The translations under genes and the position numbers were made by a program. The notes below the pieces were generated by a model, which saw only the letters and a program-made list of their open reading frames with translations, was not told the origin of the DNA and did not search any database. A DNA stretch of 63,434 nt, filler included, from Asterionella formosa (taxonomy: Eukaryota), in assembly GCA_002256025.1 (NCBI GenBank). It is 25 parts of 25 records of this genome, joined end to end, with 100 filler letters (N's around TTAATTAATTAA, not from the genome) between each part and the next. Parts side by side here need not be neighbours in the genome. Positions count along the whole stretch, not along the records: positions 4,834 to 6,343 come from NKIB01002136.1; 24 more parts are not named here. The stretch is one strand, 5' to 3'. Of this stretch, positions 4,288-51,900 are shown piece by piece (within the stretch, counting starts at the first letter, position 1; every line of letters starts with the position of its first letter).

Positions 4288-4733
4288 TTACCAAACGAAG
4301 AACTTCTTCTTATTCAAAATGGCATCCATTTCCCTCTTCATGGCTTCAGTTTCCTCAACTGCAGCTGCAGCCCGATCTTCCAAAAGTTGTACTTGCTCCC
4401 GAGTCTTGGCGAAATTGTCGTTTTGCTCATTCTCGAGTTGTCTAATATGTTGTTGGAAAGCTTCAATAGATTCTTGATACCCTTGCATGGTTTCGATCAA
4501 ACGAGTCACAATCACCCCGGCAGATAAAAGTGCACTGACTTGATCTTGTTCGGTTGTAAGGTTATCTTGCAACTGACGTACCAGCAGTATTTCATCTTCG
4601 GACGTTTGGACTCTACAAGATTCCAATTCCGTAACTTGACTGGCATGTTGCTCGCGAAGGGTCTGGACAGTGCTACGAAGTACTCCAACTTGTTCACCAT
4701 CATCATCATCATCTGCCGCCGCGGCGGCGGCTG
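4288..4733 (-). CDS. Coiled-coil protein C-terminus (5' partial)
   Basis: Frame stays open upstream to the contig edge (AAAADDDDGEQVGVLRSTVQTLREQH...). E/Q/K/L heptad composition; convergent with the previous gene. Confidence 0.65.
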
Positions 4734-4833
4734 NNNNNNNNNNNNNNNNNNNNNNNNNNNNNNNNNNNNNNNNNNNNTTAATTAATTAANNNNNNNNNNN
4801 NNNNNNNNNNNNNNNNNNNNNNNNNNNNNNNNN

Positions 4834-5530
4834 CCAAAACTTTTGCCTCAGTGTGTCGCACCTGTAAATTGAGACGAAGCAAGCCCTTCGAGATGTCCAA
4901 GAGCAATCCTGGACGATCTGGAGCATCAACTCCAACAACGAATGCGCGATCGTGACTATCCGAAACGACAACAATTTTAGAAGGACTTGTCCCTGTCTCG
5001 CCAGCCGCCAAGGGAGTGCGCTCCCTGATTTGGTCGGTAATCTTATTGATACTTCTCTGACGCTCTGATTCGTCATACTCAATCATTGACTCTTTCGTGA
5101 CACCGACTTCAACAGGAAAATCGTCAGCAACTTCAGAAGATTGCAACTGTAGATCGTCCTTCACTTCATTCGTCACGACTTCAAGACCGTGCTCCTCACA
5201 GAATTCTCCAAACTCTTCGATGAGCCCGGTGAAGTACACGATGTCTCCAACAGACAGGACAAAATCTGGACTGACGGCATGATGGACATTGCCTGTCGAA
5301 GCACGGTGTACACTGACGAGATAGATGCCACCAGAGTCTCTCAAGCCAGAGCGCTTGACAGTTCGTCCTGCCGCAGGTGACCATGGTGTCAACCTTGCTC
5401 CCAACAAGAGCTCATCGGCGTCCGTTAGTGGATCCAATGCATGATTCTTGGAGGCCCGACCCCCAGGCAGGGAGAATGGAGCAGCAAGCATAATGTACGC
5501 CAAACCAAAAATCGCAACAGGGACACCATA
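4834..5530 (-). pseudogene. SLC13/sodium-sulfate cotransporter (SLT-like) fragment with TrkA-C and ACT-like domains, interrupted by a Copia LTR
   Basis: TM segment YGVPVAIFGLAYIMLAAPF-LPGG, TrkA-C (SPAAGRTVKRSGLRDSGGIYLVSVHR...VLSVGDIVYFTG), ACT-like DAPDRPGLLLDIS. The frame runs directly into the LTR at about 5530. Confidence 0.8.
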
Positions 5531-5992
5531 TGATAAAATATATGGAATCCAACGAATCGAGAATCAATATTCTTAGTAGTGATTAGAAACCAAGACCCAA
5601 AACATCTCGTCATTTATTGACAAATGACTGGAGATGTTTACTTATTGACAAATGACCGGACTGGAGATGTTTACTTATTGACAAATGACTGGAGATGTTA
5701 CTTATTGACAAGTGAATCAGATGCTCACTTATTGTCAAAAGAATAAGTGCTGCTCACTTATTGTCAAATGAATATGCTTACTTATTGTCAAAGTAAGCAA
5801 GATCATTTTGACGGGATCAAGGAAAGTGTGAGAAGTCTTGTTCGGGATTACATGAGTAATCAGGCAAGAACAAGACTAGATAGACTATTAACAGAAAGCT
5901 CACAATATTACAAAGTGTAAAGTGAAAATACGTTTTCAGCTTTAGAGATCTTAAAAGTAAGATCTGTGATATTTCAACTAGACAATTTAACA
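5529..5992 (+). mobile_element. 5' LTR of a Ty1/Copia (CoDi-type) retrotransposon
   Basis: Near-identical second copy starting TGTGATAAAA at 52025 with different flank defines the left edge. Ends ...TTTAACA 31 nt before the gag ATG (right edge inferred). Confidence 0.75.
5612..5793 (+). repeat. Tandem ~25-31-bp repeats (ACTTATTGACAAATGACTGGAGATGTTT) inside the LTR
   Basis: About 7 progressively diverging copies of the TTATTG(A/T)CAA core. Confidence 0.9.
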
Positions 5993-6023
5993 CGTTTTAA
6001 AACGAACCTACAGGTCTAGAGAC

Positions 6024-6343
6024 ATGGTTACGGCCGATGAGAAATCAGGTGAGACTGTTCGCTTGATCAAGTTTGATGGAAGCGAAGCTGCTTGGCATGA
6101 GTGGAGTATCAAGACTCTTCAGCTTGCGAAATCTAAAGGTTTTAGGCATGTTTATGCCAAAGACACGAAGCCAATCGACGATGATGCCTATTTGGTGTCT
6201 ACTGATGATGACGAGAAGAAGAAGTATGAGTTGAATGACAAGGCATATCAGCTATTGATTCTTAGTGTCAGTGGGATTGCATTTGGGATTGTGAATTCTG
6301 CCAAGACAGATGATTTGATGGATGGAGATGCTTTTCTTGCCTG
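6024..6343 (+). CDS. gag: Copia Gag N-terminus (partial)
   Basis: LIKFDGSEAAWHEW ... NDKAYQLLILSV ... GDAFLA, a typical Copia Gag N-terminus directly after an LTR. Confidence 0.85.
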
Positions 6344-6599
6344 NNNNNNNNNNNNNNNNNNNNNNNNNNNNNNNNNNNNNNNNNNNNTTAATTAATTAAN
6401 NNNNNNNNNNNNNNNNNNNNNNNNNNNNNNNNNNNNNNNNNNNTGATGGATGGAAATGATGAGCCAAATTACATTACTTGAACTGGTTCATTATCCTACC
6501 AAGAAATTCGAATACAGGAATCAAATAGAAACAAAACATATAATAATTAAATATATGTAGTCAAAAGGGTAACTATTTAAATTACAAAGGCATTTATCA

Positions 6600-20137: not shown

Positions 20138-20449
20138 TTGTAGAGTAAATTGGTTAGTAAAACAAAAGAAATTGCATGTTAGCGATAGCAAGAACCAGTG
20201 ACCGCTTTCAATCATCACATTTGGTGAGTTTGCTGTTTATTTGCATTTCTGTGTGGTGATGTGCAAGATGCAACGTTGGAGATGAATATTGAAAAGGTGT
20301 GTTAAAGTGAGCTCATCTACGTAGTTAGGACTCGGAGTCAAACGAGTCAAACGATTCGAATGAGTCCACTTTGATGTACCAAGCTCTCATCAACCACACA
20401 TTATACTTTGCTACTCCGACTATAATGAGCCGGACAACATAAGCTATTT

Positions 20450-20829
20450 CGGAAGACCGATAGTTTGAAATGAATGATCATGGTTAAATACCTATGATCA
20501 GTAAGTGTGAGATAGACATGGGTCTATCTATGATTGTATGTTCCTAGAAATGCAAACAGCATTTGGAGAATAGTTCGTTTGTTTTGTTCAAACAGAACAA
20601 CCTAAACTAGATTAGTAAACTCACAATAAGAATATAGAAACGGAAAGAGAAACGAACGTCTCTATCTATAGTCTTCTTTGTCTAACGATATAGATCTATA
20701 CAAAAAGGTAATACTTTAACACGTTTATAAACGGACTTAAGTGTTTTAACATGTCTACAGAAATGTCTGAAGAGAGCATGAGGCTCATCAAGTTTGATGG
20801 CAACGAAACGAACTGGTACCAGTGGAGCG
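20450..20829 (+). mobile_element. Second Copia family: 5' LTR (ending about 20721; left edge uncertain) and gag start at 20751
   Basis: MSTEMSEESMRLIKFDGNETNWYQWS is homologous to the Gag at 6024, with the same TTTAACA-CGTTT junction 29 nt upstream of the ATG. Confidence 0.75.
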
Positions 20830-45753: not shown

Positions 45754-46357
45754 NNNNNNNNNNNNNNNNNNNNNNNNNNNNNNNNNNNNNNNNNNNNTTA
45801 ATTAATTAANNNNNNNNNNNNNNNNNNNNNNNNNNNNNNNNNNNNNNNNNNNNTGCTTCGTCAGCAAAAGGCAAGGTGGCATCAATACTCTTCTTTTTTG
45901 CAGTTAGAGAAGGTTTTACTGCACTTACGTGATCACATTGGCTGCCTTTCTTGATATCCTTTTTATCGTCGTTCATAATGTTGATTGAATATTGTGTTTA
46001 ACGAACAGGATAACCACAACAGTAAGAAAAGATTATGTGAAGAATATAATATAAATAATTAATCAAACCAGCAAAATATCGGAAGCAATATTGCTCAAGG
46101 GAGGTTCGGGAAATGAAGATTGTTGGTTTGAGCTTTTTTGCCGTAAGGTTATTACCATGGGTATAATAAGAAGGCTATGTTTCGCTTTATCCCGGAGGCA
46201 GAAATCTTGAAATCCTTCTTTCAAGGCTTGTTTCTGCAGGGACAGTATATGTAAATTGCACAGTTCTCGGTACCTGGTACCTGGTGAAGGTCCTTTTACC
46301 TGCTAGGAGCACCAGGTTACCCTGGTGTCACCCTGGAACCTGGTACCAGGTACCTGG

Positions 46358-48974: not shown

Positions 48975-51900
48975 NNNNNNNNNNNNNNNNNNNNNNNNNN
49001 NNNNNNNNNNNNNNNNNNTTAATTAATTAANNNNNNNNNNNNNNNNNNNNNNNNNNNNNNNNNNNNNNNNNNNNTGTAGTCATAGTCTTATTTGTTGTGT
49101 GGCTACAGTAAAAGTGTTGCATCTGCTCGTAGCATCATCGTCTAAAAAATTGCGCATCACTAAATTACAAGAAAAAATGTGCCATCAGCGACGTCAATTT
49201 TAGTTGTCAATATTATTGTATTAGGATTATTCTTTTACGATTGTGCTTACTATGTCTTGCTTGATATATGGATCAAGAACTAGGAAAGCTTCGTTCTCAT
49301 TTTTCGTCGAGATATTCGCTATTTTCATCATGGTCAAAGCTGTGACAACACGATGATGAAGGATTCTCCAGTCGCTTGCAACTACCGGTACGACTACTGC
49401 TTCACTATAGCGTCTTCTATATACAAAAGAATAGCAGAATTTCAGCTAAATATTTATATTCCAGAGCGAATGCGCGCCGTATTCTCGGATACTACATACA
49501 CTGCCTGGTGTGGATGAATCAAGCCACACGTAGTACATAATATATGTGCAATGCTATACAGTGTTCAGTTCATCTTACAGCCATTTGTTTATCGGTACTA
49601 TTCAGTATAATTAGCTACATTGTTATGTAGGTCATAGGTGGGTGTGATGGTGGCTGCCTTGAAGTGATGACGTCAAAATAAGAAACAAAATTGCTACTTT
49701 AAGCAAAATGGTCCAACAATAAGCAAAACCAACGACGCAAATGTCAAAATAATCAAAACAGATTGGTTTCTAAATTTCAGGCTAAATCAGATGATAAGTC
49801 AAAATCAGAATGATGTACTATAGGAATTATGAAGGCAGTCTATGATCGATGTCACAACAACAAAACTACTGCAATTCAGGTTACAAATGGGTAACAACCC
49901 ATGATACTCTTTTTGAATTTGGATTAATGATGATGCTAACCTAGCTAGCAGCTTTGGCAGTGAACAAACCTGAATGTGATTACTGTTTCGCTCTTCACTG
50001 CATTGGCAATTGTATTTGGTTGAGGAAGCCAGAGATGATCAAAGTTTGTTGATGGAGACATTAGAGAGCATATCAATATTTCTGTTACTGGAAGCTAACT
50101 GAACCATATAGCTAGTTTCAGTAGTATGAGGAAGCTGTCCAGCAGCAACTGGTAATAGTATAAGCTATTTTACTGAAACTAGTGAGCTATCATAGAACTT
50201 TCCAACTCCTGGTGATTTTGGGATTATGTGTTGCATTCAATTTAAAACTCTATTTGTGTATGGCATTAAGTCAATTGGACAATATATTGGTTAATTGATT
50301 GATCCAGCATGTTTACCTAAGCTGTAGCAGCATGCAATTGATTATGCTACTTTCTCTTTGCACTTTCCTAATACTCAAAAGCAGTTCAGTCAAAGTTGCT
50401 CGACCTAGAAATGATATAGGCAGTATTACTTGTACGAGTAAAGGCCTTTTTGAGAAAAAGAGAGAGAGTATAAGTGTGAGTTCTTGTAAGTGAATACCAC
50501 AAATTCAAACCCAAAGCAGGTATTCTTACCAAGGATGAGGGTCTCATATCCCACACACATGAGATGCCAGCGGAGGTCCAGANNNNNNNNNNNNNNNNNN
50601 NNNNNNNNNNNNNNNNNNNNNNNNNNTTAATTAATTAANNNNNNNNNNNNNNNNNNNNNNNNNNNNNNNNNNNNNNNNNNNNAATGTGAATTTGTGCACA
50701 GTCACAGTAGAGCAAGGGGATTGATTGAATTGTTTGAAGGATTGCCGTGAAGGAGGCATGTGAGAGTCCAAGAAAAGTGTGGAGATGGAGCAACAAATAT
50801 TTGTCTTTTCACCTGGTCGTGCGTTGCAAGACCCATTGGCATTGGCCAGTCTCGTTCTCGTTCTCGGTGTCGGTGTAGGTCTCGCTATTTTTTTGTTGCA
50901 AGTACACGACCATCAAAAGGTTTCGTACAAATCGACATGTAGGTTCATGTTCATATTCCACTAAGTTTGTAGTTTGTTTCTATGTTGTGAGCCAGAGCGA
51001 TCTTTCCCTGATTCCTAAGCATCAAAGTGCATACCGGTATGTTCGGTAAGACTGGCTTGATCATTCTCAGTGATGGTTTCCGACATGGAAGGGATTACAA
51101 GTACCGGTAGAGGCTCCGACATATATTAAATGAGGAATGTTCCGTGGATAATTGATAACTATATGCCCTGATCTTTGGTCTTAAGTCTATCATAGATCGT
51201 TGATCTATTGGATTGTATTGAATTGGATCATCAATTCACTGGATGGCTTGGCTCATTGCTGACTTTAAAAAAAATCTAATTTCAGATTTCAGATTGCAGA
51301 TTGCAGATCAGAACCTTCATCAGTCGAACCGTCAACCGGACAGGCAGTCGGCAGTCGGCAGAGAAGGGTGTGTCGAACAGTCATCGATCCCCAGGTCTTC
51401 CGTCGAGTCACACCCTCGTACTTGATCCAATTCTGTCAATCGATAGGCGATAAAAGAATATAGCGTCGATGTGGTAGACAAAGGACAGCGGTGAGGCCGT
51501 GAGGCCGTCGACAGAACCTCATGGAGTTTTAATTCAACAAGAACAGAAGTGTGTGTGATCTGGTCTGTAAGATATGCATAAGAATACCGGTACCGGTACG
51601 GGAATTCGAATGTCGTCCTGACGCTCCCCAGTCTGGTACCTGGTACCGTACCTGGTACAATACAAGGACAAGTACATACCAGGTACCGGTACCGTCATGT
51701 ACATTCCTCTGTACTCTGTACAAGGGTGGTACTGGTACATGCAAAATATTCAACCCCCACTGCAGGGAACCTTTTACGACCGTAGTGAAAGCTAATGTAC
51801 TACCGGTGCCTGGTACCAGGTACTAGGTAACAGGTAGCAGCAGTCAACTAGCACTGTGTACAAAGGTAGACTACAAGGTACTGGTAGTACCTGGTACCAG

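Follow-up and report, generated by a model that had tools for sequence, protein, structure and literature searches.

A conserved palindrome at the primer-binding-site position of Ty1/copia retrotransposons in an alga, probably a diatom

How might a Copia retrotransposon begin reverse transcription when the position expected to hold a primer-binding site (PBS) for a transfer RNA (tRNA) holds a palindrome instead? The question is raised by an element whose 5' end lies in a 63,434-nucleotide stretch of DNA from Asterionella formosa (assembly GCA_002256025.1), the whole of which is referred to here as the window. Directly after the last base of its 5' long terminal repeat (LTR), the element carries a perfect 12-nt palindrome, enclosed by a stem formed between U5 (the unique 5' region of the LTR) and the untranslated leader. 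Comparison of four related families supports the view that the palindrome is a conserved, functional, self-complementary feature at the PBS position, set within a conserved stem. The features on which the argument depends are as follows.

5531..5992, + strand: 5' LTR, 462 bp, TG...CA, running from TGATAAAAT to CAATTTAACA; delimited by loose contig ends with diverse flanks and by its match to the 3' LTR of metagenome contig L002
5978..5983, + strand: U5-leader stem, 5' strand, CTAGAC; pairs with 6014-6019
5993..6004, + strand: perfect 12-nt palindrome CGTTTTAAAACG at the PBS position, directly after the last base of the LTR; proposed self-complementary PBS
6014..6019, + strand: U5-leader stem, 3' strand, GTCTAG; overlaps the ACCT-AC-AGGT motif by 2 nt
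6024..6343, + strand: start of the gag-pol open reading frame (ORF), first 106 amino acids, 99% identical to residues 1-106 of the 1509-residue polyprotein of L002

The LTR boundary, the palindrome and the surrounding stem

The LTR occupies positions 5531-5992, its boundaries being fixed by two independent lines of evidence. For the first, contigs from public sequencing runs were aligned to positions 4834-6343 and scored at the points where they diverged into unrelated sequence (loose ends). In run X1, 27 contigs had loose ends before 5531 (agreement 0.55), and the same left boundary was obtained from run X16 (7 contigs) and from runs X6 and X15. The left loose-end consensus, ...TTTCGAGATCAGGGAGGG, is the polypurine-tract junction of 3' LTRs. 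On the right, 17 contigs of run X1 had loose ends behind 5992 (agreement 0.46) and 10 behind 5993 (agreement 0.52), the latter arising because both LTR junctions of L002 happen to continue with C. The second line was provided by L002 itself, which contains the last 102 bases of a 5' LTR (positions 1-102) and a 3' LTR (4661-5122) that is identical to the window LTR at 458 of 462 positions and is directly preceded by the polypurine tract GAGATCAGGGAGGG. Its 5' LTR ends in ...TTTAACA followed by CGTTTTAAAACG, while its 3' LTR ends in ...TTTAACA followed by the unrelated flank CATACTG. An earlier note on this DNA had taken TTTAACA as the end of the LTR, and both lines place the end there, at 5992. 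The summed word depth in run X1 rose about 100-fold, from about 1.5e4 (5446-5496) to about 1.4e6 (5548-5598), and was about 0.72-0.85e6 within gag; although depth does not equal copy number, these values show a highly repeated sequence in which the LTR is covered more deeply than the interior.

Letter by letter, the junction reads as the earlier note had described it. The palindrome at 5993-6004 follows TTTAACA immediately, and is followed in turn by a single base (A at 6005), the motif ACCT-AC-AGGT at 6006-6015 and the gag ATG at 6024; the 23-nt stretch that contains the palindrome occurs once in the window. The lack of TGG that had been reported was seen throughout 5993-6023, and also between the LTR end and the ATG in each of the four families compared below, and a tRNA 3' end was therefore excluded as the primer.

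Assignment of the element to the Ty1/copia (Pseudoviridae) LTR retrotransposons, as the earlier note had labelled it, is based on the order of its protein domains, its TG...CA LTRs and its polypurine tract. The 106-residue ORF of the window had no Pfam match of its own, but retrieved 280 relatives at E <= 1e-3 from a representative library. A domain scan of 12 longer or closer relatives, among 150 matches listed, gave copia-type families in 11, including Retrotran_gag_2 in 10 and, in the 1340-residue relative P0040, RVT_2, rve and SH3_retrovirus; relative P0001 gave none. In L002 an uninterrupted ORF of 1509 codons starts at an ATG and encodes Retrotran_gag_2 (residues 34-210), zf-CCHC (230-245), Pol_BBD (384-462), rve (581-679), SH3_retrovirus (749-809) and RVT_2 (999-1228). 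The order in the polyproteins of L002 and of a second relative, L005, is gag, zinc knuckle, protease, integrase and reverse transcriptase, as is usual in copia.

The related loci came from one scan of metagenome contigs, which yielded seven, L001-L007; the region of interest is missing from L007. At 99% identity, L001 and L002 are members of the window element's own family, while the N-terminus of Gag is 71% identical to that of the window element in L003 and L004, 62% in L005 (56% over the whole polyprotein) and 57% in L006. The family of L006 is also represented in the window, by a second Copia element whose upstream flank is unlike that of L006 and which lies next to an unrelated host ORF.

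20300..20721, + strand: LTR of the second Copia element (L006 family), TGTTAAAG...CTTTAACA; 410 of 422 positions match the L006 LTR
20722..20733, + strand: palindrome of the second element, CGTTTATAAACG, followed by G, an 8-nt palindrome ACTTAAGT at 20735 and an ATG at 20751

In all four families the LTR ends in TTTAACA and is followed directly by a 12-mer of the form CG........CG. This 12-mer is a perfect palindrome in seven of the nine LTR-leader junctions examined, and exists in three versions:

CGTTTTAAAACG, perfect palindrome: window 5993, L001, L002
CGTTTATAAACG, perfect palindrome: L004, L006, window 20722
CGCTTGCAAGCG, perfect palindrome: second copy in L005

The three versions differ from each other only at the mirror positions 3/10 and 6/7, where both sides have changed, so that in the four-family alignment two of the six palindrome pairs covary and all 24 of the 24 cells are paired. 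The two exceptions are L003 (TGTTTATAAACT), in which the ORF is in three pieces, and the first copy in L005 (TACTTGCAAGCG), which has lost the ATG and has TTGAACA in place of TTTAACA at the LTR end. The positions lost in these two copies lie in or beside the outer CG dinucleotides. Of the self-complementary priming site that the earlier note had put forward, the self-complementarity thus stands, palindromy being kept by two-sided changes and lost in two degenerate copies, whereas priming by fold-back or dimer would be a step beyond these observations.

A lone 12-nt palindrome at an LTR junction would be only mildly remarkable in this genome. The chance of one is about 3e-4 per position in the window, and 49 were counted in 61,034 bases (linkers and TA runs excluded), compared with 17.2 +/- 3.9 in shuffled sequence. 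Palindromes of 12 nt of the GGTACC/CCTGGTACCAGG type are scattered over unrelated mini-contigs (172, 19095, 21942, 28440, 37891, 46339-46346, 51586-51809 and 57431); they make up much of this excess and may belong to another repeat family. What raises the palindrome at the LTR junction above chance is its recurrence at one position in four families, in more than one sequence. The degenerate pattern TTTAACACGNTTNNAANCG was matched 113 times in viral contigs; these are chance matches, used only as a control. Four of the 113 were palindromic, and none lay beside a copia polyprotein (no copia hits by tblastn).

The U5-leader stem encloses the palindrome in the same register in all four families, with covariation. 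The alignment on which this was assessed contained one row per family, and hence four of the nine junctions (identical and degenerate copies were left out), and covered, without gaps, the 24 bases that precede the LTR end and the 38 that follow it. RNAalifold paired columns 12-18 with columns 45-51 and predicted an additional small hairpin within the palindrome, 5 of the 11 pairs being kept through two-sided changes. With the 9-pair stem and the six palindrome pairs taken together, 88% of cells were paired, against 27-47% when the partners were slid by 1-3 columns, and six pairs changed on both sides (four of nine in the stem, two of six in the palindrome), against 1-3 when slid. The covariation score of stem and palindrome was reached by none of 500 shuffles, a test in which related sequences can outdo shuffles without any structure being present. 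Folded singly, each family gave the stem shape (z-scores of -2.9, -2.7, -2.6 and -0.9). The homodimer energies predicted for the three palindromes were -11.8, -12.4 and -21.1 kcal/mol, compared with -0.1, -0.1 and -2.5 kcal/mol for the respective 4-bp hairpins, and in cofolds of whole leaders the dimer was predicted to use the complete palindrome between the two strands. The motif ACCT-AC-AGGT was considered as a hairpin of its own and rejected, as a 2-nt loop is impossible; its equivalents in the relatives (ACTTAAGT in L006, CTTTGTA-TC-TACAAAG in L004) do not share a register, and the U5-leader stem fits the region better.

Possible routes of primer formation

Synthesis from the 3' end of the primer starts by copying the last base of U5, give or take 0-3 bases trimmed by integrase, and this places the annealing site of the primer at or just inside 5993, within the palindrome. 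In what we regard as the best reading, and one with about an even chance of being correct, the palindrome would be a self-complementary PBS primed by the element's own RNA, whether in cis, by folding back, or in trans, as a dimer. In the dimer, a 12-bp duplex would form at the palindrome between two co-packaged genomic RNAs; in the fold-back, a single RNA would bend back upon itself. A cut just 3' of the palindrome, at 6004/6005, would leave a 3'-OH base-paired opposite 5993, the first position beyond U5. A candidate for this cut would be the RNase H of the element, by analogy with the self-priming of Tf1, in which RNase H makes the cut. The reverse transcriptase would then extend the primer through U5 and R, the repeated region of the LTR, to give minus-strand strong-stop DNA, and RNase H would trim the rest of the leader during copying, while the RNase-H-resistant 12-bp RNA duplex would stay in place as the primer. 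The primer to be expected would be a 12-nt (or longer, leader-derived) element RNA ending in ...CGUUUUAAAACG. Fold-back of the cut leader in cis would be possible, if energetically weak. As both partners would be element sequence, the site could drift for as long as it stayed self-complementary. A more far-reaching version, put forward here tentatively as somewhat short of an even chance, is that two co-packaged RNAs prime each other at a palindromic PBS after a cut at the edge of the duplex, so that dimerisation and initiation would be a single event independent of host tRNA; the fungal GalEa elements discussed below may share this trait or descend from elements that had it.

A number of points weigh against self-complementary priming. 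Its basis is assembled contigs, and only four families and three palindrome versions stand behind the comparison. Because the stem was partly derived from the same four sequences, the slid control is biased towards it. Of the three duplexes, two are AU-rich and weaker than the 18-bp pairing of a tRNA with its PBS. The first copy in L005 keeps an open frame of 1494 codons despite its broken palindrome, and loss of symmetry is therefore not strictly tied to loss of the ORF. The model also needs an extra assumption about the trimming of a long leader primer, and another about how the template keeps its own copy of the PBS for the second strand transfer. Finally, the argument against tRNA fragments that follows is one from symmetry.

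The primer could instead come from the host, for example as a fragment from inside a tRNA, which is how copia and Ty5 are primed, or as another small RNA, with the symmetry serving dimerisation or being incidental. Such priming has precedents within Copia: half of tRNA-Met is used in the Osser, Bryco and Gymco-II lineages and half of tRNA-Ile in Bianca (PMC6317226), while FunCo1 uses an internal region of tRNA-Lys (PMC5445492). A host RNA nevertheless appears unlikely, as CGTTTTAAAACG and CGTTTATAAACG both occur in the window and a third version occurs in a relative, each of which would need its own perfectly palindromic primer, and the changes between versions are strictly mirror-symmetric. 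A tRNA arm is further disfavoured as the primer, since an arm closed by a 7-nt loop cannot form a perfect palindrome of even length. It is also unlikely, to a slightly greater degree, that the main role of the palindrome is to signal dimerisation or packaging from a stem tip, in the manner of a retroviral dimer initiation site, with priming taking another route that does not depend on self-pairing of the palindrome. The position of the palindrome at the apex of a conserved stem would suit such a signal, and palindromes drive dimerisation in retroviruses (PMC5445492), with Ty1 as a further example (PMC6844567). There is, however, no room for a separate PBS, as the palindrome starts at +1 and is followed by only 5-9 poorly conserved bases before the 3' strand of the stem; a retroviral dimer site exists in addition to the PBS (PMC5445492), and a separate PBS was not found at the junctions examined here.

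A further route would be self-priming of the Tf1 type, with the start of the transcript folded back to pair with the site. For plant TAR Copia elements, Houba and Osr-1 among them, self-priming has been predicted (PMC6317226), and copies of a half-site are present upstream in the LTR, as CGTTTT (5931-5936) and as CGTTTA in L004 (4270-4275). These copies track the T-to-A difference between the families of the window element and L004, and their occurrence is within chance expectation. We consider this route very improbable: no match between LTR and palindrome exceeded 6 nt in any family, the number of matches being about that expected by chance; the two 7-nt matches found, in L004 and L006, fall outside the palindrome, from +20 onward; no match puts a 3' end opposite +1; and L005 and L006 have no half-site resembling CGTTTT or CGTTTA. 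Complementarity to the element's own 5' end, which the earlier note had itself raised as an objection, was accordingly sought and not found, there being no LTR segment of at least 7 nt that is complementary to the palindrome or is placed for priming at +1. That the palindrome is a chance or neutral feature of a palindrome-rich genome seems scarcely credible; although palindromes of this length are about three times commoner in the window than in shuffles, the same position and length recur in four families, in three sequences related by mirror changes, and palindromes made up only 4 of the 113 pattern matches in the control.

Other features of the elements and of the window

Beyond the stem, the LTR of the window element contains three further features.

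5598..5800, + strand: array of seven tandem repeats of about 24-33 nt in U3 (the unique 3' region of the LTR), with the core TTACTTATTGACAAATGA
5899..5907, + strand: CTCACAATA box, invariant in the four-family alignment and lying 94-129 nt upstream of the point where the LTR stops
5946..5965, + strand: U5 hairpin AGATCTTA-AAAG-TAAGATCT, from the minimum-free-energy fold

The repeats of the U3 array look like repeats of the enhancer type. They differ in number and sequence among copies, with gaps of 33 nt and 5 nt in aligned contigs; one RNA-library contig skips 33 nt, and segments of 101 nt are replaced in run X1. Apart from TTTAACA, the CTCACAATA box is the only LTR block conserved in the four families, and it may be a candidate promoter, start-site or poly(A) region. 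At a place similar to that of the U5 hairpin, L004 and L006 have hairpins or palindromes of the AGATCT type, and TATAGATCTATA is present at window position 20689. In run X1, seven contigs with a loose end behind 5973 share a variant U5 end, ...GCAAGACAATAAAACAC (agreement 0.9), which suggests a sub-family with an LTR ending in AAAACA. One RNA-library contig of run X15 starts with an adapter followed by GGG exactly at the first LTR base, 5531; its meaning is ambiguous, as it could be a fragment from the polypurine tract, which also ends in GGG, or the end of a molecule at the LTR terminus. The LTR of the second element is bounded by 8-bp terminal inverted repeats (TGTTAAAG/CTTTAACA).

The pol ORF continues across the polypurine tract and is closed by the first TGA of the 3' LTR (L002 4658-4663; L001 about 2650-2662), so that the coding sequence, the plus-strand primer and the start of the LTR overlap. 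The elements look recently active, judging by the uninterrupted ORF of L002, near-identical copies, high depth and presence in metatranscriptomes. Element sequence is present in metatranscriptome assemblies, and near-identical copies were found across many samples; RNA-library contigs span the LTR, the palindrome and the gag start (X15 record 10, X16 records 17-19), although contigs show neither ends nor strand nor transcription. The catalytic box of the reverse transcriptase is HVDD in L002 (at about residue 1179), a member of the window element's family, and YVDD in L005 (residue 1141); in a family with other signs of recent activity, HVDD is unusual. The contig ends of L003, L004 and L006 overlap terminally by 67-158 nt at 97-99% identity, with a single LTR inside, and L005 contains two tandem ORFs with one LTR in common. 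These arrangements could be collapsed repeat assemblies, tandem arrays or one-LTR circles. Protein searches of viral contigs returned no relatives, and two Chitinophagales loci from genome contigs, L008 and L009, were judged spurious (32% identity over 56 residues) and were not used.

The window consists of mini-contigs of about 1.5-1.6 kb in roughly falling length, joined by 24 linkers of the form N44-TTAATTAATTAA-N44 (e.g. 6344-6443), and includes a single linker-free stretch of 24.8 kb (20930-45753); features on opposite sides of a linker are not physically linked. The first palindrome lies in the mini-contig 4834-6343, in which the element is cut off at 6343, with no 3' LTR in the window; host flank is seen on the 5' side for this copy and on the 3' side for L002. 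The left part of this mini-contig carries a host gene fragment on the minus strand, with a TrkA_C match and weak ACT matches, and the right part carries the start of the retroelement. Other genes in the window are eukaryotic (ArfGap, BSD and PUB domains). ARAGORN found no tRNA within the window, and Rfam at gathering thresholds found no RNA family within it. The element stretch was present in 20 runs from 16 studies, comprising algae and lake, freshwater, estuary, marine and drinking-water metagenomes; two of these runs may be the source of the DNA. For the ArfGap protein, the Atlas neighbour cluster that has recorded taxa consists mostly of Bacillariophyta (score 0.94), which gives a lead to the host. 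The host of this Copia family is a eukaryotic alga, probably a diatom.

Comparison with known priming systems

The idea has more precedent than the earlier note had implied: in fungal GalEa elements a palindromic sequence takes the place of the PBS (PMC5445492), and the TAR Copia elements already mentioned are proposed to prime themselves (PMC6317226). The closest precedent is the "Conserved Hairpin Site" of GalEa, Copia elements without a PBS in which a 9-bp sequence is palindromic together with the final A of the LTR (PMC5445492). Two of its variants, CTGATCAGT and CTAATTAGT, differ at positions 3 and 6, a mirror pair, and a complementary second sequence (CHSeq2) lies 12-41 bp downstream (PMC5445492). 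In both systems, then, a Copia element without a tRNA-type PBS has a palindrome where the 5' LTR ends, with mirror variants, and a larger hairpin may extend across the LTR junction. The present palindrome differs in being 12 nt long and of another sequence, with the final A of the LTR outside it (A5992 and A6005 cannot pair), and the host is an alga whereas that of GalEa is a fungus. GalEa and the CoDi clades of diatoms fall on the same major Copia branch (PMC5445492). No partner of the CHSeq2 type was found here, the best downstream 9-mers having 3-4 mismatches and 429-500 of 500 shuffles being as good. Of the protein strings characteristic of GalEa, KARLVA/KSRLVI, TRPDI and ADxxTK were sought by regular expression and found in neither L002 nor L005 (CQPEA and QTDD were not searched); L002 has ADLLSK.

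Tf1 pairs the first 11 or so nucleotides of its transcript with a PBS that is not palindromic, in contrast to the site of the present elements, which is its own complement and has none in the LTR. In copia and Ty5, priming is by a half-tRNA (the hemivirus type), and in retroviruses U5-leader or U5-inverted-repeat (U5-IR) stems surround the PBS. The features shared with Tf1/Sushi elements and with the self-priming predicted for TAR Copia (PMC6317226) would be independence from tRNA, use of the element's own RNA and a primer end made where a nuclease cuts the edge of an RNA-RNA duplex. Half-tRNA Copia elements (Osser, Bryco, Bianca; PMC6317226) likewise have no TGG at the PBS, but theirs matches one conserved tRNA anticodon arm (of initiator Met or Ile), whereas three mirror-symmetric versions are found here. 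The retroviral dimer initiation site is similar in having a palindrome on a stem tip, with stems that bracket the initiation site, although it is separate from the tRNA PBS (PMC5445492), while here both would be one sequence. The CoDi Copia elements of diatoms have LTRs of 153-844 bp and, in CoDi6.2-6.5, tandem CCHC motifs in Gag (PMC2806351). The present elements resemble them in their likely algal or diatom-type host, a length of about 5.5 kb, TG...CA LTRs within that size range and tandem CCHC-type knuckles, two of which are present in the Gag of both L002 and L005. The main text of the CoDi paper contains nothing on primer sites (PMC2806351), and a full-text search of a limited paper collection returned no description of a palindromic PBS in a diatom or algal Copia element.

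The way in which Copia elements without a PBS are primed has been an open question since the report on GalEa, whose authors found that no known priming model fits (PMC5445492). The elements described here present the same kind of feature in a simpler form, as a single palindrome without a partner sequence and with a covarying stem around it, and as they look recently active they would offer a tractable system in which to study self-complementary priming. LTR annotation in which a tRNA-type PBS is obligatory, as with the LTRdigest filtering applied to a diatom genome (PMC7466962), would probably drop elements of this kind. Self-complementary priming in such elements would also bear on the view that hairpin priming or self-priming came before tRNA priming (PMC3601003).

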